64,000 bases of DNA from Candidatus Aminicenantales bacterium (GCA_049287565.1 JBAQGA010000189.1:15626-79625); one strand, 5' to 3'. Shown: positions 28,779-43,243, counted from the stretch's first letter. A program made the numbers and translations. The notes: generated by a model not told the origin, from the letters alone.

Positions 28779-29231
28779 ATGAAGTTCGGAAATTTCAAGG
28801 ATATTATGCAATTCGCCATCGAGCGCGAAGAGGAAGCCGCCAGGAACTACGGCAAGTTGCGGTCAATCGCCAAGGAAGAAGCCGCCAAGAGGCTTCTGGG
28901 CGATCTCCAGCAGGAGGAGATGAACCACAAGAAGATCCTTCAGGGGCTGACCAAGGTCAAGATCGAGGCGACGACTTCCAAAAACGTGAAGGACCTGATG
29001 ATCAGTGATTATCTGGTCGAAGAGCCGCTTACCCCGGACATGAATTTCCAGGACCTCCTGATCTTTGCGGCCAAGAAAGAAAAAAAGGCCGCCGACCTGT
29101 ATTCCGATCTCGCCAAGAGATCCTCGACCAAGAACCACAAGGCACTGTTCGAGTTCCTGGCCAAGCAGGAGAAAGCCCATAAGCTGCGCCTCGAGCTCGA
29201 GTACGAAAAACATGTCCTCTGGGAGGATTGA
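28779..29231 (+). CDS. Ferritin-like diiron-carboxylate protein (rubrerythrin/COG1633-like), paralog A
   Basis: 150 aa; two E...ExxH pairs (EEMNHKK; EKAHKLRLE) in a four-helix-bundle pattern; GAGGAGG RBS; paralogous to 42005..42514 and 48837..49331. Confidence 0.6.
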
Positions 29232-29280
29232 GCCGCCTCCCCGGGCAGCTGGCGATCAATATCCAGCAAGGAGACACGAC

Positions 29281-29442
29281 ATGGAAAAATGGGAATGCCA
29301 GGCCTGTGGCTACATCTACGATCCCGAAAAGGGAGACCCCGATAACGGCGTCGCTCCGGGAACCCCGTTCGAGGAACTTCCTGAAGACTGGGTGTGTCCC
29401 CAGTGTGGCGTGGGCAAGGAGTTTTTCCAGAAGCTCTCCTGA
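29281..29442 (+). CDS. Rubredoxin
   Basis: 53 aa; [12 protein letters not shown]...[14 protein letters not shown] with the two CxxCG knuckles; AAGGAG RBS; absent from the ORF-track annotation frame as a separate gene. Confidence 0.85.
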
Positions 29443-29475
29443 GCTTTTGCCGACCGCGGGGATCAAGGGATTCAA

Positions 29476-30678
29476 ATGAAAACCGTCATCATCGGCAACG
29501 GCCTGGCCGGGACCATGGCCGCCAAGACAGTGCGGGAACTCGATTCTCAAGTGGAGGTCCTGATTTTCGCCGAAGAGAGGTACCATTACTATCCCCGGCC
29601 TAACCTCATCGAGTATATCGCCGGCAAACTGCCCTACGAGCGCTTATTTGCCTTTTCCGAGGGGTGGCATGTTCGCCAGAAGATCGACATCCGGCTCGGG
29701 ACTGCCGTCCGCAAGATCCACCCGCGATCCCGGGAAATCGAGTTGGAGGGAGGTGGGCGCGATTCTTATGATAAGCTGTTGATTGCCAACGGCGCCTCTT
29801 CGTTCATCCCCCCCATCAAGGGAGCAGATCAACGAGGCGTCTTCTCCCTGCGGACTCTGGATGATGCCCAGGCCATCCTTGACGGCCTCCAAAGCCACCA
29901 TCAAGTGGCCGTCATAGGAGGCGGTCTGCTCGGGCTCGAGATCGCCCGGGCCATCCGGTCACGCGGTGCCGAGGTGGAGGTGGTGGAATTTTTCGACCGC
30001 CTGCTGCCTCGCCAGCTCGACACTCAGGGAGCATCACTCCTCCGGAGCCAGATCGAGAGCCAGGGCATCCGGATTCGCCTCGGCGTCGCTACCGAAGAGA
30101 TTCTCGGTAATGGGGAGACGAAAGGGCTCAAGCTGAAGGGCGGCCCTGAGGTCAAAGCCGACATGGTCGTCATCGCCGCCGGCGTGCGGCCGAACCTAGG
30201 GCTGCCCCAGGACGCCGGGTTGGCCACGGACCGCGGGCTGGTGGTGGATGATCGGCTGCGGACGAGCCACCCCCAAGTATTTGCCGCAGGAGACAGTATC
30301 CAGCATCGGGGAAAAGTGTACGGTATCATCCCCGCCTCATTCGAACAGGCGCGCACAGCCGCCTACAATATCATGGGAGAGGACAAGAAGTACGAGGGAA
30401 CGGTTCCAGCTAACACCCTCAAGGTGGCCGGCCTATATGTCACTTCGGTGGGCCTAGTGAATCCCGAAGGAGAAGGATTCGAGGAGGTCAGGAACTACAA
30501 GAAAGAAGAGGGAATCTATAAGAAGATCGTTCTTCAGGACGGCGCCCTGGTGGGATCCATCTGGATGGGGACAAAGAAGGGCGTCAACGAGATTGCCCGC
30601 GCTGTAACCGCAAAGGCCAAGATCAGTCAATGGATCAACACCCTGCTTGACGACAGCTTCGATTTTTCAGTGCTATGA
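29476..30678 (+). CDS. NAD(P)H:rubredoxin oxidoreductase (FAD pyridine-nucleotide disulfide oxidoreductase family)
   Basis: VIIGNGLAG FAD motif; second VAVIGGGLLGLE NAD motif; 400 aa; directly downstream of rubredoxin. Confidence 0.7.
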   Translation: MKTVIIGNGLAGTMAAKTVRELDSQVEVLIFAEERYHYYPRPNLIEYIAGKLPYERLFAFSEGWHVRQKIDIRLGTAVRKIHPRSREIELEGGGRDSYDKLLIANGASSFIPPIKGADQRGVFSLRTLDDAQAILDGLQSHHQVAVIGGGLLGLEIARAIRSRGAEVEVVEFFDRLLPRQLDTQGASLLRSQIESQGIRIRLGVATEEILGNGETKGLKLKGGPEVKADMVVIAAGVRPNLGLPQDAGLATDRGLVVDDRLRTSHPQVFAAGDSIQHRGKVYGIIPASFEQARTAAYNIMGEDKKYEGTVPANTLKVAGLYVTSVGLVNPEGEGFEEVRNYKKEEGIYKKIVLQDGALVGSIWMGTKKGVNEIARAVTAKAKISQWINTLLDDSFDFSVL

Positions 30679-35582: not shown

Positions 35583-37328
35583 ATGATGATCAAAGACCTG
35601 TCCGTGATGATCGCCGGCAAGGCGGGCGATGGTGTTCTATTCACCGGCAATGTCCTGGCCAAGCTCTTCAAACGCCAGGGCTGGGAAGTCGCCACTTACC
35701 GTGATTTTCCTTCGAACATTCGCGGCGAAAACACCTGCTACACGGTCCGCGCCTCTTGGGACAAGATCTATGGCTTGGGAGACCGGGTGGATATCCTGAT
35801 GGCCTTTGACTGCGAGGCTATCCTGGCCCATCTTCCCGAAATCGCCGAAAATGGGATCGTCTTCTGCGACGGTGAGGGAGTCGCGGACCTTCCGCCGGAG
35901 AAAACCCGGGGAAAGACATTCCACCGTTTTCTCCTCCGTTCACTGTCCCGGGAGAAGTTCGGTCAGGAAATCTTCAAGAACATGATCGCCCTCGGTGCCT
36001 TGAGCCATGTCCTTGACCTCGACCGTTCAAGCCTCGAGCGAATCATTTCCGAGATGTTCTTAAAGAGGAAAGGGGAAGACGTCGTCCAGATAAACATCCG
36101 GGCGGCATCCTTCGGCTGCGAGAAGGCGCGGGAGATTACGGCTGAAACAGAACGGCATCCGCTGGCGAGAAAAGGGGATGGCGACCGGATCCTCATCTCC
36201 GGAGACGAAGCTGTCGGCCTTGGCGCCCTGGCCGCCGGGTGCCGCTTTTTTGCCGCCTACCCCATCTGTCCCGCTTCCGAGATCGGTCAAGAGCTCGTTC
36301 TTCATATGCCGGAGTTTAGCGGTGTTGTCGTCCAGACAGAGGACGAGCCGGCGGCTCTCAACATGGCCATCGGAGCGGCCTTTGCCGGCGCCCGGGCGAT
36401 GACCGCGACGTCCGGGCCCGGAGCGTCCCTGATGATGGAAGCGTTCAGCTTGGCGGGGATGATGGAGATTCCGGTCGTCGTCGCCCATGTTCAGCGTATG
36501 GGACCGGCCACCGGGATGCCGACCAAGAGCCAGCAGGGCGATGTCCTGCAGTGGATCTTCGGGTCGCACGGCGAATTCCCCCGCATCGTCCTGACGCCGG
36601 GGACAGTGGGGGAGTGTTTCGAATTGTCGGTCAAGGCCTTCAACCTGGCCGAAAAATACCAGTGTCCCGTCATCATCCTGACCGAGCTTGACATGGGCCA
36701 GAACTACCGGACGACCCGGTCGTTCGACCTCTCCGCCGTCCGAATCGACCGAGGCAAACTGTTGCGTCGCGAGGAGCTTCTGGATATCGCGGATTTCAAA
36801 CGGTACGAACTCACCGCCGACGGAATCTCGCCCCGGTCTCTTCCGTCCTATAAGAACGGCATCCACCTCGCCGAAAGCCTGGAGCATGATGAGAGAGGCT
36901 ACCGCGATGAAGACCCGGCGAACCGCCTGCGGATGATGGACAAGCGCATGCACAAGTTCGACCGGGCAGCCGCAGACCTGCCCACTCCCCGTCTGTGGGG
37001 CTCCCAAAAGGCCGATGTCGGGTTCATCGCTTTCGGTTCCACGCTGGGCGCCGTTCTCGAGGCCATGGACCAGCTCGGGGAAAAGAAAGTGCCCTCCCGG
37101 TTTCTCCAACTGCGGACGCTCTGGCCCTTTCCGGCCGCCGCGGTCCGGGAATTTCTGGCGGAGAGCCGGGATGTTTTTGTCGTCGAGCATAATTATGAAG
37201 GTGAGCTCGCCACCCTGATCAAGAGTCAGATCAGCCCCTGCGGAGAGCTGAAGAACATCGTCAGCTCCTCGACCCGGACGTTCACACCCCGGGATATCGT
37301 CGACCCCGTCCTCGAGGCGGCCCGATGA
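35583..37328 (+). CDS. korA: 2-oxoacid:ferredoxin oxidoreductase, alpha subunit (gamma-alpha fused, KorA-like)
   Basis: N-terminal gamma-like domain (MIAGKAGDGVLFTGNVLAK) fused to alpha domains; 581 aa; 4-nt overlap with the beta subunit. Confidence 0.8.
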   Translation: MMIKDLSVMIAGKAGDGVLFTGNVLAKLFKRQGWEVATYRDFPSNIRGENTCYTVRASWDKIYGLGDRVDILMAFDCEAILAHLPEIAENGIVFCDGEGVADLPPEKTRGKTFHRFLLRSLSREKFGQEIFKNMIALGALSHVLDLDRSSLERIISEMFLKRKGEDVVQINIRAASFGCEKAREITAETERHPLARKGDGDRILISGDEAVGLGALAAGCRFFAAYPICPASEIGQELVLHMPEFSGVVVQTEDEPAALNMAIGAAFAGARAMTATSGPGASLMMEAFSLAGMMEIPVVVAHVQRMGPATGMPTKSQQGDVLQWIFGSHGEFPRIVLTPGTVGECFELSVKAFNLAEKYQCPVIILTELDMGQNYRTTRSFDLSAVRIDRGKLLRREELLDIADFKRYELTADGISPRSLPSYKNGIHLAESLEHDERGYRDEDPANRLRMMDKRMHKFDRAAADLPTPRLWGSQKADVGFIAFGSTLGAVLEAMDQLGEKKVPSRFLQLRTLWPFPAAAVREFLAESRDVFVVEHNYEGELATLIKSQISPCGELKNIVSSSTRTFTPRDIVDPVLEAAR

Positions 37329-38185
37329 AAGAAAAACGAGGCTTCCAGCTCACCACTCCCACCTGGTGCAAAGGCTGCGGCCTGTTCGGCGTTTTCGACG
37401 CCCTCAAGAACGCAGCCGCATCGCTCGACCTCGAGCCCGAGGACCTGGTCATCGTCACCGGGATCGGCTGCCACGGCCGGCTGAACAATTATTTCCACGC
37501 CTACGGTTTCCACGGCCTCCATGGCCGCACCATGCCGGTGGCCGCCGGGATCAAACTGGTCAACCCGCTCCTTCAGGTGGTGGCCGTCAGCGGCGACGGC
37601 GATGCCTACTCGATCGGCCTGGGCCATTTCCTCCATGCCCTCCGCAAGAATATCGGTCTCACCTATGTGGTCGTTGACAACCGCATTTATGCTTTGACCC
37701 AAGGACAGGCTTCGCCGACGACGGACTTCGGAACGGTCACCCTCTCCACGCCTTTCGGCTCCAAGGATTTTCCCATCGACGGGGCGGCGCTCGCCCTGGC
37801 GGCCGGCGGGACCTTCATCGCCCGCGGTTTTTCCGGCGAGGTGGCCCATCTGGCATCCCTCATCGAGCGGGGAATGAGGCACGACGGATTCGCCCTGATC
37901 GATATCCTCAGCCCCTGCGTCACCCAGAACAAGGTGAATTCTTATGATTGGTACCGGAAGCATGTCTTCCACGTGGAGGATATCCCGGATTACAACCCTC
38001 GAGACAAAGCCAAAGCATGGGACGCTTTGAGCAGCCCGGAGAAGATCGCCATCGGCTTGATTTATGAAGAGGGCAAGCCGTCCTTCGAGGAGCTCGTCCT
38101 TCCCGACGTCAAAAAGCCGATCGCCTCGCTCGACCTCGAAGTCAATCGTCCGCGGCTGCAGAGAATCATCGAGAGATTTCGTTGA
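37325..38185 (+). CDS. korB: 2-oxoacid:ferredoxin oxidoreductase, beta subunit (TPP-binding)
   Basis: TWCKGCGLFGV...GIGCHGR...SGDGD TPP-binding beta-subunit motifs. Confidence 0.85.
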   Translation: MKEKRGFQLTTPTWCKGCGLFGVFDALKNAAASLDLEPEDLVIVTGIGCHGRLNNYFHAYGFHGLHGRTMPVAAGIKLVNPLLQVVAVSGDGDAYSIGLGHFLHALRKNIGLTYVVVDNRIYALTQGQASPTTDFGTVTLSTPFGSKDFPIDGAALALAAGGTFIARGFSGEVAHLASLIERGMRHDGFALIDILSPCVTQNKVNSYDWYRKHVFHVEDIPDYNPRDKAKAWDALSSPEKIAIGLIYEEGKPSFEELVLPDVKKPIASLDLEVNRPRLQRIIERFR

Positions 38186-38229: not shown

Positions 38230-38448
38230 ATGAAAGAGAAAGTTGAAGCGGCCTTGAACAAGGTCCGGCCCGCCCTGATGGCCGACGGCGGAAATGTCGA
38301 GCTCGTTGACGTCCAGGATGGAGTGGTCAAGGTGAAGCTCACCGGTGCCTGCAGCGGCTGTCCGATGTCCCAGATGACCCTGAAAATGGGGATCGAAAGG
38401 CTCTTGAAGAAGGAAGTCCCGGAAGTCAAGGAGGTCGTCGCCGTCTGA
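38230..38448 (+). CDS. NifU-like C-terminal domain protein (Nfu-type Fe-S carrier)
   Basis: 72 aa; [21 protein letters not shown]...GACSGCPMS CxxC motif. Confidence 0.8.
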
Positions 38449-38460
38449 GACGGCTTTCAT

Positions 38461-39657
38461 TTGCCGATCAGGGCCATGAAGCGGGTTTATCTCGATCACA
38501 TTGCGGCCACACCCCTGGATCCCCAGGCCGTGGAGGCAATGCTCCCTTATCTAGGGGAAAAGTATGGCAATCCCCAGAGTCTCCATTCCGCCGGGCAGGA
38601 AGCGCTGGGGGCTGTCCAGGAAGCACGCTCGCGGGTCGCCCGGTTGATCGGCGCCGAGGAAAATGAGATCTTCTTCACCTCCAGCGGTTCGGAGGCCAAC
38701 AATTTCGCCGTCAAGGGAATGGCCCTGGCCCGGCGGGATAGGAATCGGCATCTCGTTGTCTCGGCCATCGAGCACCAATCCGTCCTCCATTCCGTCAAGA
38801 GCTTGGAGAAGTTCGGTTTTTCCTCGACTTTGGTCCCCGTCGACCGGGACGGCCTGGTCGATCCGGAGGACGTCAAGCGGGCCCTCAAGAAGGAGACGGC
38901 GCTCGTTTCCGTGATCCTGGCCTCGAGCGAGGTGGGGACGATCGAGCCCCTGGCCGAGATCGCCCGGGTCTGTCGTTCGGCGGGGATTCCGCTCCACACC
39001 GACGCTGTGGCGGCCGCCGGCAACATCCCGCTGGAGGTCCGGGAACTCGATGTCGACGCCCTGAGCCTGGCCGCCGACCAGTTCTACGGGCCCAAGGGGA
39101 GCGGCGCTCTTTTCCTAAGGAAAGGGACGCGGATCCTGCCTTTCATCGACGGTGGCATCCAGGAAGGCGGCCGCCGCAGCGGGACGGAGAACGTCGCCGG
39201 GATCGTCGGGATGGGCCAGGCGGCCGAACTCGCCCTGACGAAATTGGCCGAACGCGGTGAGAGGCTGAGCTCCCTTCGCGACAGACTGATCGAGCATCTT
39301 CCCCAAAAGGTGGGCCGGGTCTATCTGACGGGACACCGGGAAAAACGGCTGCCTCATCATGCCAGCTTCTGCGTCGAGTTCATCGAGGGCGAGTCCATGC
39401 TCCTGAACCTGGACATGAAGGGGATCGCCGCCTCGAGCGGCTCGGCCTGCACCTCGCGGGCGCTCAAAGCCTCCCACGTGCTCCTGGCCATGGGCATCGA
39501 TCATGCTCTGGCCCAGGGATCGCTGGTCTTCAGCCTGATCGACAACACGACGGCCGCGGATATCGATTATCTCCTGGATGTCTTCCCGCCTATCATCGAC
39601 CGGCTGAGGAAGATGTCGCCCCTCTACACCAAATTTCTGGAGGAGAACGAGAAATGA
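38461..39657 (+). CDS. Cysteine desulfurase (NifS/IscS class)
   Basis: Class-V aminotransferase fold, SSGSACTS active-site Cys loop; 398 aa. Confidence 0.9.
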   Translation: MPIRAMKRVYLDHIAATPLDPQAVEAMLPYLGEKYGNPQSLHSAGQEALGAVQEARSRVARLIGAEENEIFFTSSGSEANNFAVKGMALARRDRNRHLVVSAIEHQSVLHSVKSLEKFGFSSTLVPVDRDGLVDPEDVKRALKKETALVSVILASSEVGTIEPLAEIARVCRSAGIPLHTDAVAAAGNIPLEVRELDVDALSLAADQFYGPKGSGALFLRKGTRILPFIDGGIQEGGRRSGTENVAGIVGMGQAAELALTKLAERGERLSSLRDRLIEHLPQKVGRVYLTGHREKRLPHHASFCVEFIEGESMLLNLDMKGIAASSGSACTSRALKASHVLLAMGIDHALAQGSLVFSLIDNTTAADIDYLLDVFPPIIDRLRKMSPLYTKFLEENEK

Positions 39658-40235
39658 TCTATACCGATAAAGTCATGGACCATTTCCAGAATCCCCGCAA
39701 CGTCGGGGTGATCAAAGATGCCGACGGCATCGGTCAGGTCGGCAATCCCGTCTGCGGCGATATGATGACCTTCAGCATTAAAGTCCAAGAGAACAAGCTC
39801 AAGGACGTCAAGTTCCAGACCTTCGGCTGCGGAGCGGCCATCGCCGTTTCCAGCATCGTCAGCGAGATGGCCATGGGCAAAAGCCTGGAAGAAGCCATGA
39901 AGATCACCAACGAGATCGTGGCTCAGGAACTCGGCGGCCTGCCCAAGAACAAGCTGCACTGCTCCAACCTGGGAGCCGATGCTCTGCACGCCGCGATCGA
40001 GGACTATAAGAAAAAACAAAAGAAAAAAGACGAGGTCGCTTCGAATGCCGATAAAGAAACGGACCTGCAATCCAAGAAATGCTACTGTCCCTATTGCGAT
40101 GGTCCTCTGGAGGGGATGGAGGCCATTTGCTCGACCTGTCACAGGGTCCTTGAGGAGTGCCCGCACTGCGGCGGCCTCACCAAGAAGGGGGATCTGAAAT
40201 GTGCCAAGTGCGGAGCCGACCTGGTACCCGAATAA
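39654..40235 (+). CDS. IscU/NifU-type Fe-S scaffold fused to a C-terminal double zinc-ribbon
   Basis: N-terminal ~125 aa IscU (GNPVCGD...GCGAAI...HCSNLG), K-rich linker, then CYCPYC..CSTC..CPHC..CAKC (four CxxC pairs). Confidence 0.8.
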   Translation: MIYTDKVMDHFQNPRNVGVIKDADGIGQVGNPVCGDMMTFSIKVQENKLKDVKFQTFGCGAAIAVSSIVSEMAMGKSLEEAMKITNEIVAQELGGLPKNKLHCSNLGADALHAAIEDYKKKQKKKDEVASNADKETDLQSKKCYCPYCDGPLEGMEAICSTCHRVLEECPHCGGLTKKGDLKCAKCGADLVPE

Positions 40236-40300
40236 GCTTTTTCCCAAAGCTAAGCAGATCCCGCGGGCGAGCCTTTCCCCAAGAGGAGCGGAGAGAGACG

Positions 40301-40534
40301 GTGAAAGCAGGCGCAACGCTGGATTGCTTCGGGCTCCTTTGTCCGATGCCCATCATCCAAACGGCCAAGAAGATCAAAGAATTGAGAATCGGCGAGGTCC
40401 TCGAGATCGTTTCCACCGATGAGGGTATCAAGGTCGACATGCCGGCCTGGTGCAAAATGACAGGTCAACAATTCCTCGGGCAGGAGCAGGACGGTGATGT
40501 CTACCGCGTCTATATCCGCAAGCTCAAGGATTAA
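40301..40534 (+). CDS. TusA-like sulfurtransferase (SirA/YedF/YeeD family)
   Basis: 77 aa from GTG 40301 (GGAGAGAGA RBS); LDCFGLLCPMPIIQTAKKI with CPxP motif. Confidence 0.6.
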   Translation: MKAGATLDCFGLLCPMPIIQTAKKIKELRIGEVLEIVSTDEGIKVDMPAWCKMTGQQFLGQEQDGDVYRVYIRKLKD

Positions 40535-40550
40535 GGGACGGCGAAACATC

Positions 40551-41456
40551 GTGACCAAGGACGAAATCATCGATCGGATCCGTAAGCTCCGGAAAGAGCG
40601 AAAGGCGGTCATCCTGGCCCACAACTACCAGATCGGCGAGGTCCAGGACATCGCCGACTACACCGGCGACTCCCTGGGATTGAGCCAGGAAGCTGCCAGG
40701 AGCGAGGCCGAAGTGATCGTCTTCTGCGGCGTCCATTTCATGGCTGAGACGGCGGCCATCCTCTCTCCCCAAAAAGCCGTCCTTCTGCCTGATGCGGGGG
40801 CCGGATGCCCGATGGCCGACATGATCACCGCCCAGGAACTCCGCGACTGGAAGGCCGGATACCCGGGCCGGCCGGTCGTCTGTTATGTCAACACCACCGC
40901 CGAGGTCAAGGCCGAATCCGACATCTGCTGCACCTCGTCCAATGCCGTCAAGGTGGTGAATTCCATCCCCGAGGAGGAGATCCTTTTCGTCCCCGACAAG
41001 AATCTGGCCGCCTATGCCGCCCGCCAGACCCGAAAGAAGATCATCGCCTGGGACGGCTATTGCTATGTCCATAACCAGATCCTGACGGCGGATGTCCAGG
41101 CCAGGAAAAAGGAACATCCGAAGGCCGAGATCTGGGTCCATCCCGAGTGCCGGCCCGAAGTGATCGACCTGGCCGATAAGGTTATCTCCACGGGTTTCAT
41201 GGTGAAAGCGGCGCGGGAGACTACGGCTGCAGAAGTCCTCGTCGGCACCGAGGTCGGGATCCTTCATCGGTTGCGGAAAGAGAACCCGCGAACGGCGTTC
41301 TTCCCCGTCAAGGACTTGGCTTTTTGTTCGAACATGAAAAAGATCACTCTCCTTAAGGTCCGGCAGGCCTTGGAGGAGATGAGATACCGGATCGACGTCC
41401 CCGCGGCGATCAGCCGGAAAGCGAGAGGGGCCATCGAGAAAATGATCACCCTATAG
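40551..41456 (+). CDS. nadA: Quinolinate synthase
   Basis: 301 aa from GTG 40551; AVILAHNYQ...VHFMAETA...HPEC NadA motifs; the ORF-track N-terminal extension overlaps tusA and is rejected. Confidence 0.9.
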   Translation: MTKDEIIDRIRKLRKERKAVILAHNYQIGEVQDIADYTGDSLGLSQEAARSEAEVIVFCGVHFMAETAAILSPQKAVLLPDAGAGCPMADMITAQELRDWKAGYPGRPVVCYVNTTAEVKAESDICCTSSNAVKVVNSIPEEEILFVPDKNLAAYAARQTRKKIIAWDGYCYVHNQILTADVQARKKEHPKAEIWVHPECRPEVIDLADKVISTGFMVKAARETTAAEVLVGTEVGILHRLRKENPRTAFFPVKDLAFCSNMKKITLLKVRQALEEMRYRIDVPAAISRKARGAIEKMITL

Positions 41457-41465
41457 GAGGTTTCC

Positions 41466-41969
41466 ATGAACAAGAAGACCGAAGACAACGTAAAGGCGGC
41501 CTTTGCCGGTGAGAGCCAGGCCCACATGAGGTACAAGGCTTTTGCCGATGCCGCGGAAAATGAGAAGTTCGCCAACGTGGCCCGCCTGTTTCGGGCCAAC
41601 AGCTACGCCGAGCAAGTCCATGCCACCAATCACCTCAAGACCTTGGCCGGAATCCGGAAGACGGCCCAGAACCTGCAGGAGGCGGTGGACGGGGAGAACT
41701 ACGAAGTCAAGGACATGTACCCGGCCTTCAAATCCATGGCCGAAGCCGAGGGCGAGAAGACGGCCGTGTTCTGGTTTAACGCCGCCTTGGAAGCGGAGAA
41801 GATCCATGCCGGCTTGTATAAAAAGGCCAAAGAAGCCGTGGACAAGGGCCAGGACCTCGCCTATTTTCCCATCCATATCTGCAGTGTCTGCGGATTCACG
41901 GTCGAAGGCGATGCCCCCGACAAGTGCCCTGTCTGCGGCGCTCCCAAAGAGAAGTTCATCAAGTATTGA
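41466..41969 (+). CDS. rbr: Rubrerythrin (diiron domain + C-terminal rubredoxin-like domain)
   Basis: AFAGESQAHMRY...E..H diiron motifs; C-terminal CSVCG...CPVCG. Confidence 0.9.
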   Translation: MNKKTEDNVKAAFAGESQAHMRYKAFADAAENEKFANVARLFRANSYAEQVHATNHLKTLAGIRKTAQNLQEAVDGENYEVKDMYPAFKSMAEAEGEKTAVFWFNAALEAEKIHAGLYKKAKEAVDKGQDLAYFPIHICSVCGFTVEGDAPDKCPVCGAPKEKFIKY

Positions 41970-42004
41970 GGCCGGTTCCAGGGTGCGTCTGAAAGGAGAA
42001 TGCT

Positions 42005-42514
42005 ATGGCCTTAAACACGAAACTGCGGCCCTATGAGGTCTTGGCCGTCGCCATCCGGTCGGAGATCGAGGCGGCGGATTTCTACGCCAGGCTCCTGGCT
42101 CGGGTCAAGAACATCCTGCTCCAGCAGAAGCTGAAGTTCCTCGTCCTGGAGGAGAAAAAGCACCGCAAGATCCTGGAGAGGCTCCATTCCCAGCGCTTTC
42201 CTGATGTTGTGCTCAAGGTTCCTGAGAAAACGGTTCGGCCTCGGCCGAAGACAGCTCTGGATGAGAAGAGCTCCATCCTCGAGCTCTTCCAGGCGGCCCT
42301 GGAAGCGGAGAAGGCGGCCGAAACGTACTACAAAGACGCCCAGGGAGTGGTCAAAGACGTCGGGAGCAAGAAGATACTCGAATACCTGAGCCGGGTCGAG
42401 CGCAGCCATTACTTCCTGATCAAGTCGGAGATCGATCTTCTCGGCCGGTTCCCCGATTATTATGATGTCGAGGATTTCCACCTCGGTCAGGACCTCTTTC
42501 ACGTCGGCCCTTGA
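42005..42514 (+). CDS. Ferritin-like diiron-carboxylate protein (COG1633-like), paralog B
   Basis: 169 aa; EIEAADFY...EEKKHRKILE...EAEKAAETYY...ERSHYF E/ExxH pattern. Confidence 0.55.
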   Translation: MALNTKLRPYEVLAVAIRSEIEAADFYARLLARVKNILLQQKLKFLVLEEKKHRKILERLHSQRFPDVVLKVPEKTVRPRPKTALDEKSSILELFQAALEAEKAAETYYKDAQGVVKDVGSKKILEYLSRVERSHYFLIKSEIDLLGRFPDYYDVEDFHLGQDLFHVGP

Positions 42515-42580
42515 GGGTTTTTTCTTACACTAAGGATTAGTAAATGGGCCCCGTCACAATTCGGCCAATGGTATCTGAGC

Positions 42581-43243
42581 ATGGAGCGCGCTAAGGAACG
42601 GATCGGGAAGATCATCCGCGTCCTCCGGCGGGAATATCCCCGGAGTCGCACGGCGCTCGAGTTCGAAACGCCCCTCCAGATCCTGATCGCCACCATCCTG
42701 GCGGCCCAGTGTACGGACGAGAGGGTCAACCGGATCACGCCCGCTCTTTTCCGGAAATATCCAACTGCGGCGGCCTTGGCCGCGGCTGACCGGCAGGAGC
42801 TCGAGGCGGAGATCCGGCCGACCGGGTTTTTCCGCAACAAGGCCAAGAGCATCAGCGGCGCCGCCCGGAAGATCGTCGAGGACTTCGGCGGGGAGGTGCC
42901 GGCGAACATGGCCGACCTCGTCACCCTCCCCGGCGTGGCCCGGAAAACGGCCAACATCGTCCTCTCCTCCGGCTACGGCATCGCCGAGGGGATTGCCGTC
43001 GATACCCACGTCAAGCGGCTCTCCGGCCGGCTCGGACTGAGCCGACAGAGCGATCCCGAGAAGACCGAACGCGATCTTATGAAGCTCGTCCCCAAAAAGG
43101 ACTGGCTCGATTTTAACTACATGCTGGTCAACCACGGCCGGAAGGTTTGCCAGGCTCGTAAACCGCGCTGCCCGGCTTGCCCTCTCCGAAACCTTTGTCC
43201 CTCGGCGGTGAAACTCTTTCCGGGACTCAAGACCAAGTCATGA
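42581..43243 (+). CDS. nth: Endonuclease III
   Basis: HhH-GPD motif (LPGVARKTANIVL) and C-terminal CQARKPRCPACPLRNLC [4Fe-4S] cluster loop. Confidence 0.9.
   Translation: MERAKERIGKIIRVLRREYPRSRTALEFETPLQILIATILAAQCTDERVNRITPALFRKYPTAAALAAADRQELEAEIRPTGFFRNKAKSISGAARKIVEDFGGEVPANMADLVTLPGVARKTANIVLSSGYGIAEGIAVDTHVKRLSGRLGLSRQSDPEKTERDLMKLVPKKDWLDFNYMLVNHGRKVCQARKPRCPACPLRNLCPSAVKLFPGLKTKS

Follow-up and report, generated by a model that had tools for sequence, protein, structure and literature searches.

We report that the IscU scaffold protein encoded in a stretch of DNA from a Candidatus Aminicenantales bacterium (GCA_049287565.1, JBAQGA010000189.1:15626-79625) carries a C-terminal tail, a putative tandem zinc ribbon, and that the same ribbon is found in other phyla as a separate gene beside iscU. 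The whole stretch, hereafter the window, has 64,000 nucleotides (nt). Positions are counted along its full length, and genes were called from open reading frames (ORFs), Pfam and NCBIfam profiles and, for the starts, alignments of homologues. At the level of gene and protein comparison, we show that IscU proteins of this kind have the zinc ribbon as their dedicated partner, either fused to them or encoded next door, and that the ribbon almost always accompanies a NifS homologue devoid of the catalytic lysine, often together with a TusA-type sulfur carrier and a DsrE2-like protein. The ribbon looks like an undescribed and widespread accessory domain or protein of NifS/IscU systems, an extra component of a poorly understood and probably cysteine-independent machinery that assembles iron-sulfur (Fe-S) clusters. 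The original prediction, made from the DNA sequence of the window, had placed the genes nfu, nifS, iscU with its tail, a tusA-like gene and nadA in this order between positions 38,230 and 41,456, and profile matches recover all five of them on the plus strand.

The iscU gene with its tail (39654..40235) encodes a protein of 193 amino acids (aa) in which the NifU_N domain (PF01592) is matched over aa 3-124 with an E-value of 1.5e-49. Its scaffold core (aa 1-118, 39654..40007) scores 193.4 with TIGR03419 (NifU_clost), for a cutoff of 187.9, and the cluster ligands C34, D36, C59, H102 and C103 are all invariant in an alignment of relatives. A flexible lysine-rich linker (aa 119-142, 40008..40079) connects the core to the tandem zinc-ribbon tail (aa 143-193, 40080..40235). 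The tail holds four CxxC knuckles, C145/C148 (CPYC), C159/C162 (CSTC), C169/C172 (CPHC) and C183/C186 (CAKC), and one extra cysteine, C143. That IscU bears here a four-CxxC extension absent from canonical IscU was correctly predicted: the fusion is real, as core and tail are read in one open frame and 39654-40232 contains no stop codon. The segment CYCPYC, which had been counted as a CxxC pair, does contain one knuckle (CPYC). It reads C-x-C-P-Y-C, so that an additional cysteine is present besides. The ribbon domain is about 45 residues long and acidic, with eight invariant cysteines. Pfam places it close to known zinc ribbons, with DZR (PF12773) at 21.5-24.4 for a gathering threshold of 27.3 and Zn_ribbon_3 (PF13248) at 21.9-24.4 for a threshold of 27, the second ribbon alone reaching 27.3, and many homologues of the tail carry precomputed DZR matches. 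No curated family for the ribbon was found in NCBIfam, nor any solved structure of the ribbon family. Two AlphaFold models of moderate confidence only (pLDDT, the predicted local distance difference test, of 67 and 71) contain short strands that would be compatible with zinc ribbons. In the model of IscU with its tail, pLDDT is below 50 in the linker (residues 130-141) and 62-81 in the tail. The modelling shows the tail as a putative separately folded domain on a flexible tether, like beads on a string. The beginning of the linker tract (40008-40034) is A-rich (AAGAAAAAACAAAAGAAAAAAGAC) and of a slippage-prone type; a shifted frame would yield a tail-less IscU.

The fusion is conserved among related genomes. 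The tail alignment was scanned against one genome per GTDB species, which gave 110 confirmed genomes, and reading frame and synteny were taken from the best 80 of these 110, almost all labelled Aminicenantes. Wherever the core was on the contig, core and tail lie in a single frame (79/79 of the best 80 loci). The tail is thus kept in all these close relatives, and the reading of the tail as a separate small ORF is ruled out, since there is no stop and a single frame is shared with the core both here and in the 79 loci. An identical protein has been deposited as 'NifU' from a Candidatus Aminicenantales metagenome-assembled genome (MAG), and the best 120 protein clusters (67-100% identity, 185-196 aa) all carry the tail. 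In an alignment of 43 sequences the eight cysteines of the tail never vary, nor do P146, Y147 and G150, and the spacing C-x2-C-x10-C-x2-C-x6-C-x2-C-x10-C-x2-C is kept in 169 of 183 family members. The linker varies in both length and sequence among relatives. The net charge of the fused tails averages -5.6, and each of the 120 is acidic. A role as nucleic-acid-binding regulator is on this account unlikely for the fused form; some stand-alone members may differ. The ninth cysteine, two positions before CPYC (C143 in the window, within 40080-40094), is present in 112 of the 120 fused clusters. It is worth adding that the other eight all have a histidine one position before CPYC, which has the look of a ligand swap; the eight may be related to each other. 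Most relatives are MAG or metagenome contigs, and their taxon labels may be wrong. For example, a contig with genes 90-100% identical to those of the window (DATKXS010000094.1) is labelled Candidatus Desulfaltia, which belongs to Desulfobacterales in the NCBI taxonomy. A 100% identical IscU protein (P0001) and nearly all syntenic loci are labelled Aminicenantes, and many others bear the placeholder 'uncultured Eubacteriales'.

The main evidence that the tail works with IscU comes from organisms in which the ribbon is encoded by a separate gene beside iscU. A search with the tail only against 1.84 billion representative proteins gave no match at an E-value of 1e-10 or better and returned mostly generic multi-ribbon proteins. 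It also exposed stand-alone proteins of 57-70 aa with the identical cysteine motif. Their gene is located directly 3' of iscU in all eight genomic contexts, often overlapping it, and the upstream iscU encodes a tail-less protein of 127-136 aa; two of these contigs end within the upstream gene, the remaining part of which reads as an IscU C-terminus. The usual order in these split clusters is nifS, iscU, ribbon, a DsrE2-like gene (PF13686) and tusA. Genes for rubredoxin, ferredoxin, rubrerythrin or glutaredoxin recur beside the module, often after tusA. The stand-alone ribbon genes are on contigs labelled WOR-3, Planctomycetota, Actinomycetota (Anoxymicrobiaceae) and Chloroflexota. A scan of metagenomes with an exact DNA pattern, requiring the ninth cysteine and the exact spacing, provided 80 loci for analysis, of which 41 were fused, 37 split and 2 at contig edges, a ratio that is no population estimate. 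In these loci iscU is upstream of the ribbon, or of the ribbon part, in 78/78 evaluable cases. Fusions also occur on contigs labelled WOR-3, Planctomycetes, Chloroflexi/Chloroflexota, Latescibacterota and WS2. Linkers are unrelated between phyla in length and composition, so that the fusion has arisen several times. Together with the scan that yielded 110 genomes, the fusions in other phyla rule out that the tail is peculiar to this genome or to Aminicenantes. The original prediction was right about the extension itself and missed its separate-gene form in other phyla. Databases hold hundreds of such proteins, annotated only as NifU, zinc-ribbon protein or cysteine desulfurase. We found no description of the fusion or of the module in the literature on IscU or NifU with a zinc ribbon and on TusA/DsrE with IscU.

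The second hallmark of the module is its NifS homologue. The nifS/iscS-like gene (38476..39657, plus strand; its longest possible ORF begins at TTG 38461) encodes a class I fold protein of the aminotransferase class V type (PF00266, 216.8 bits, E 5.9e-64) that matches IscS structures in the PDB with E-values to 1e-120. It scores 487.1 bits with TIGR03402 (FeS_nifS), below the cutoff of 530.75. We aligned it to the active enzyme of PDB entry 9wep and to a canonical copy from a metagenomic locus, L128. The motif that binds pyridoxal 5'-phosphate (PLP), canonically S-x-S-[AG]-H-K-x-Y-GPKG, is degenerate (39064..39099): it reads SLAADQFYGPKG, whereas the active enzymes read SFSAHKMYGPKG and SLSAHKFYGPKG. 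SLAADQ thus stands in place of SFSAHK or SLSAHK, the Schiff-base lysine being replaced by glutamine, the histidine by aspartate and the serine by alanine. Three other PLP ligands, the equivalents of Q183, S203 and H205, are also replaced, with alanine at both the Q183 and S203 positions. The catalytic-loop motif SSGSACTS (39433..39456) is kept. The same features recur in relatives. Across 147 related loci the lysine position is occupied by Q (123), S (8), L (4), T (3), M (3), P (2) or by E, R or N (1 each), and the lysine is absent from 146/146 evaluable copies adjacent to iscU and from two of three further named-phylum loci (148/149 in total). The loop cysteine of SSGSAC is retained in 145/145 related copies. 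Considering the missing lysine, the loss of the three other ligands and the likeness to the IscS of Archaeoglobus fulgidus, this protein probably cannot make persulfide from cysteine. Annotation pipelines call such NifS homologues 'cysteine desulfurase' despite the missing catalytic lysine. Locus L128 (1669-5236) is of the fused form and includes DsrE2-like and TusA genes. It has a second nifS, which is canonical (SLSAHK, Q183 present), directly follows tusA and is itself followed by an aconitase gene; this downstream nifS is the sole lysine-bearing copy among the 147 loci. Such an arrangement suggests that, where a separate active desulfurase exists, it may be the one that supplies TusA.

The tusA-type gene (40301..40534, plus strand, GTG start) encodes a 77-aa sulfur carrier that matches PF01206 with 83.8 bits (cutoff 28.6, E 7.6e-24) and has the motif LDCFGLLCPMP, with the CPxP cysteine in LCPMP. 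Its score with the E. coli TusA equivalog family NF001423 is 56.1, below the cutoff of 78. This TusA (window 40319-40342) and those of L081, L083, L086, L087 and L090 form a subfamily with a second conserved cysteine, LDC-x-GL-x-CPMP, five residues before the CPxP cysteine. E. coli TusA has an alanine at the position of the second cysteine. The window TusA shares 54-58% identity with the TusA proteins of split clusters, and the IscU core shares 70-76% with the IscU of most of these clusters and 44% with that of one, which makes tusA an inherited part of the nifS-iscU-ribbon module. The next gene, nadA (40551..41456, plus strand, GTG start), encodes a 301-aa quinolinate synthase, a [4Fe-4S] enzyme (NF006878, 426.5 for a cutoff of 294), with cysteines in GAGCPMA, GYCYVHN and AFCSNMK as candidate [4Fe-4S] ligands. 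At fused metagenome loci, tusA follows in 23/28 cases, a DsrE2-like gene with tusA in 3/28 and nadA in 24/28, with nfu upstream in 17/19; at split loci the corresponding counts are 15/24, 10/24, 0/24 and 0/22. In genome loci of the Aminicenantes type nadA follows the fusion without exception (74/74) and tusA is missing from 23 of the 74. A contig labelled Latescibacterota (L211, 2815-5516) has a lysine-less nifS, iscU-ribbon and nadA in adjacent positions without tusA or nfu, so that the nadA linkage is not confined to Aminicenantes-labelled contigs. For the tusA-nadA adjacency, whose co-conservation was to be checked according to the original prediction, the counts tie tusA to the module rather than to nadA: tusA goes with nifS-iscU-ribbon, nadA is found without tusA, and at split loci nadA is never adjacent. 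NadA is most plausibly a co-expressed [4Fe-4S] client. Two small genes were observed in this part of the clusters. In some of the Aminicenantes-type loci, an ORF of about 90 aa with a STAS domain (PF01740, 26.1 bits; L039, 6471-6740) is located between tusA and nadA or replaces tusA, as seen in 9/28 fused metagenome loci; an ORF of this type is also present in L024, L026, L033, L042, L050 and L055, and not in the window. In a Chloroflexota split cluster (L090, 2228-2524), tusA is followed by a gene for 98 aa that are similar to the C-terminal region of proteins named 'MobB/FeS domain-containing' (NF011062, E 4.9e-14), which may point to a connection with molybdenum cofactor synthesis.

What could be the function of the ribbon? 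To form a [2Fe-2S]2+ or [4Fe-4S]2+ cluster from Fe2+ and sulfide, two electrons have to be removed, and to form it from sulfane sulfur two have to be supplied. The role that we favour, tentatively, is that of a rubredoxin-like electron-transfer module with two sites, which would be the counterpart of the ferredoxin of the ISC system or of the central domain of NifU. The two Cys4 sites would bind two metal ions, and the ribbon would act in cis on a (NifS-like)2(IscU)2 complex. Sulfur would enter as sulfide, or as sulfane sulfur bound to a carrier, via TusA (with DsrE2), and not from cysteine via PLP chemistry. Electron transfer is suggested by the position of the ribbon, which is that of the central redox domain in NifU, by the acidic tails and by the recurrence of redox genes in the neighbourhood. 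By analogy, the acidic fused tails may be likened to electron carriers and to acidic proteins docking on IscS. The proposal can be extended to a self-contained, cysteine-independent pathway that would be common to many uncultured bacterial phyla of anaerobes and to the isc1 cluster of Methanosarcina, with lysine-less NifS, IscU, the eight-cysteine ribbon and TusA as its members, joined in other phyla by a DsrE2-like protein. Sulfur would then be delivered as sulfide or bound to TusA/DsrE2, the NifS homologue would act as a Cys-loop ligand or carrier only, and the scaffold would have in the ribbon its missing partner for two electrons or two irons. We consider this wider scheme rather unlikely.

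Several points weigh against an electron-carrying ribbon in a cysteine-independent system. Cys4 zinc ribbons usually bind zinc and are structural. Rubredoxin- and rubrerythrin-type profiles (PF00301, PF21349) gave no match to the tail at E-values up to 10, a rubredoxin query gave none either, and in Pfam the affinity of the tail is to the DZR and Zn_ribbon families and to neither rubredoxin nor RUBY_RBDX, though the tail may work in a similar manner. Foldseek and hidden Markov model searches of the PDB with the ribbon returned generic zinc fingers only, with E > 0.1. The stand-alone ribbons are only mildly acidic (mean charge -0.95, range -6 to +4) and 12 of 56 lack the ninth cysteine. A true rubredoxin or ferredoxin is often encoded in the same cluster, so that the tail need not carry electrons. 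Concerning NifS, some capacity to mobilise sulfur may survive without the lysine, and the link between ribbon and lysine loss is one-directional, as ribbon-bearing loci were those sampled. A locus labelled WS2 (L213, 1640-3999) keeps HK in the copy adjacent to iscU and is the single exception. This locus has tandem nifS genes before iscU-ribbon, with N-terminal halves that are identical, HK included, and C-terminal halves that differ, which may reflect gene conversion or an assembly chimera. Alternatively, the tail could be a purely structural adaptor with two Zn(Cys)4 sites that docks IscU on the NifS-like dimer, on a second IscU, or on clients or carriers such as Nfu, NadA or TusA. It would lend stability to the complex or gate it, itself transporting neither electrons nor iron nor sulfur, and would have parallels in small accessory factors of ISC or in the zinc domain of HscB/DnaJ. 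The Pfam likeness to DZR and Zn_ribbon families and the exclusively zinc-finger structural matches speak for such an adaptor. Moreover, repeated fusion and translational coupling imply physical association only, and the separate rubredoxin or ferredoxin genes of several clusters could meet the redox need. By itself, however, an adaptor leaves unaccounted for the near-exclusive pairing with lysine-less NifS, as well as the common ninth cysteine and the adjacent histidine in fused clusters without it. We hold this possibility to be nearly as likely as electron transfer, and doubtful too. The earlier suggestion that the tail is a docking or redox module is in any case reasonable.

Two further explanations are less probable. 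The tail could handle sulfur, iron or the cluster directly. In that case the extra cysteine, or maybe a first-knuckle cysteine, would take sulfane sulfur from TusA/DsrE2 to IscU in the manner of SufU or SufE, or else the Cys4 sites would deliver two irons or hold a nascent cluster. The frequency of the ninth cysteine in fused clusters, with the neighbouring histidine in the other eight, would fit such a role, as would the co-conservation of the TusA and DsrE2-like carriers and the fact that the iron donor and sulfur route of MIS-type systems are unresolved (PMC13066941). Yet the ninth cysteine is dispensed with by those 12 stand-alone members, TusA is absent from many loci, Cys4 ribbon sites normally hold their metal tightly, and the eight cysteine-to-histidine clusters may not be independent events; we regard direct handling as improbable. 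The least probable scheme, to which we give very little credit, is the one originally predicted, a dedicated relay in which NifS would draw persulfide from cysteine and pass it via TusA to NadA for building its cluster in situ, with the tail as a docking site for the relay. The plant SufE3-NadA fusion is one precedent for a dedicated sulfur supply to NadA. Another is the NifS-NadA couple of Bacillus subtilis (PMC13066941); in addition, 51/74 related genomes have tusA between scaffold and nadA, as the window does, and iscSU2 adjoins nadA in Methanosarcina acetivorans. Such a relay is made unlikely by a NifS without the PLP lysine and the three other PLP ligands, by the persistence of nadA next to the fusion in the 23/74 genomes without tusA, and by the occurrence, in other phyla, of tusA and ribbon together with iscU and without an adjacent nadA. 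The orthology of TusA to that of the split clusters also argues against it.

Comparison with known systems helps to place the operon. Among solved proteins, A. fulgidus NifU-1 (4eb5_C, 191.6 bits) comes closest to the IscU core of the window, and the window NifS matches its partner 4eb5_A at 362 bits. In A. fulgidus IscS the lysine is replaced by Asp199; the protein binds pyridoxamine 5'-phosphate, has no desulfurase activity and was proposed to provide a cysteine ligand to the IscU-bound [2Fe-2S] cluster (PMC8918507; PMC7585200). As in the A. fulgidus IscS2-IscU complex (PDB 4EB5, 4EB7, 4R5F), the Schiff-base lysine is replaced in the window protein (by glutamine here), the cysteine loop is kept and the protein is paired with IscU. 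By its lysine loss, its intact cysteine loop and this pairing, the window NifS thus resembles an inactive IscS paralogue of the A. fulgidus type, as far as its sequence allows such a classification. Differences are also apparent: the replacing residues are N-D in A. fulgidus and D-Q in the window, and A. fulgidus IscU has 153 aa, no cysteine-rich tail and no described partner of the zinc-ribbon, TusA or DsrE type. The unusually large IscU1 (24.2 kDa) of the M. acetivorans isc1 cluster (MA0806-MA0811), compared here by its size, is encoded with a lysine-less IscS1, followed by DsrE-superfamily and SirA(TusA)-like genes (PMC7585200), an architecture shared with the split and fused modules of bacteria. 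The module therefore extends to Archaea, where it had been noted in passing and not studied. The isc1 cluster is uncharacterised and, unlike the window operon, has iscU before iscS. In the same organism, the location of iscSU2 next to nadA recalls the nadA linkage of the window.

The three-domain NifU of the NIF system also has a cysteine-rich metal module C-terminal to an IscU-like domain. With Nfu encoded in the same operon of the window, the three functional positions are occupied. However, the tail is a tandem zinc ribbon where NifU has a BFD-like [2Fe-2S] domain, Nfu has a gene of its own, and the score with the NifU family proper (TIGR02000, 145.7) is below the cutoff of 273.3. The MIS system, which consists of a desulfurase and a scaffold and no carrier (PMC12192291), shares with the window the pairing of a NifS-like with an IscU-like protein, none of HscAB, Fdx or IscR being encoded in the operon, an occurrence in anaerobes and an IscU of the TIGR03419 type. 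In contrast, Nfu, the zinc ribbon and TusA are extra in the operon of the window, whose 'desulfurase' is without lysine. The E. coli IscS-TusA, B. subtilis NifS-NadA and plant SufE3-NadA systems resemble the window by a CPxP carrier of the TusA family beside an IscS-family protein and by the linkage of NadA to Fe-S or sulfur genes, but they need an active PLP desulfurase, and the window TusA is below cutoff and has a second cysteine. By its gene content the operon probably belongs to the NifS/IscU (MIS-type) systems, A. fulgidus subtype, and differs from them by the ribbon, by the recurrent TusA/DsrE2 link and, here, by Nfu and NadA. The region from nfu to nadA is, in our judgement, probably the core of a conserved operon for an Fe-S cluster assembly machine of the A. 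fulgidus type. According to reviews, MIS-type systems have no known electron donors (PMC13066941), and the inactive IscS found in A. fulgidus and its like is unexplained (PMC13066941, PMC8918507). The ribbon is a specific, small and easily expressed candidate for a third component of minimal NifS/IscU Fe-S assembly in anaerobes. The recurrent TusA/DsrE2 link points also to the sulfur supply of such systems, so that a vague question becomes a set of defined experiments.

The first gene of the operon, nfu (38230..38448, plus strand), encodes a 72-aa Fe-S carrier of the Nfu type, corresponding to the NifU C-terminal domain (PF01106, E 4e-32), with a CSGC motif. Overlapping junctions had been predicted along the operon. 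This holds for nifS and iscU, which share ATGA at 39654-39657, and does not hold for tusA and nadA, whose ORFs had been over-extended: the starts aligned with homologues, GTG 40301 and GTG 40551, leave upstream gaps of 65 nt and 16 nt, respectively. No Rfam or tRNA match was found in the window and no NAD riboswitch upstream of nadA, and a promoter and terminator scan of the window gave nothing decisive. Upstream, the syntenic context is formed by subunits of a 2-oxoacid:ferredoxin oxidoreductase (35583..38185, plus strand; Pfam POR_N, POR and TPP_enzyme_C). Downstream follow rubrerythrin, a rubrerythrin-like gene and endonuclease III, nth (41466..43243, plus strand), the first two recognised by Pfam and nth named from its translation alone. 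The synteny in this lineage, i.e. 2-oxoacid:ferredoxin oxidoreductase, nfu, nifS, iscU-ribbon, (tusA), nadA, two rubrerythrin-family genes and nth, is a run of Fe-S enzymes and oxidative-stress genes.

Two other regions of the window deserve mention. About 9 kb upstream of the operon (28779-30678), there are three genes that make up a classical oxidative-stress set, for a rubrerythrin-like protein (28779-29231), a canonical rubredoxin (29281-29436) and a rubredoxin:NAD+ reductase-like protein (29476-30678). This rubredoxin is 75% identical to that of the split cluster L081, and such a separate rubredoxin system could exchange electrons with the module. Finally, a 506-aa ORF at 51313-52833 matches the ThyX (Thy1) profile in two stretches and is apparently a double-length flavin-dependent thymidylate synthase.

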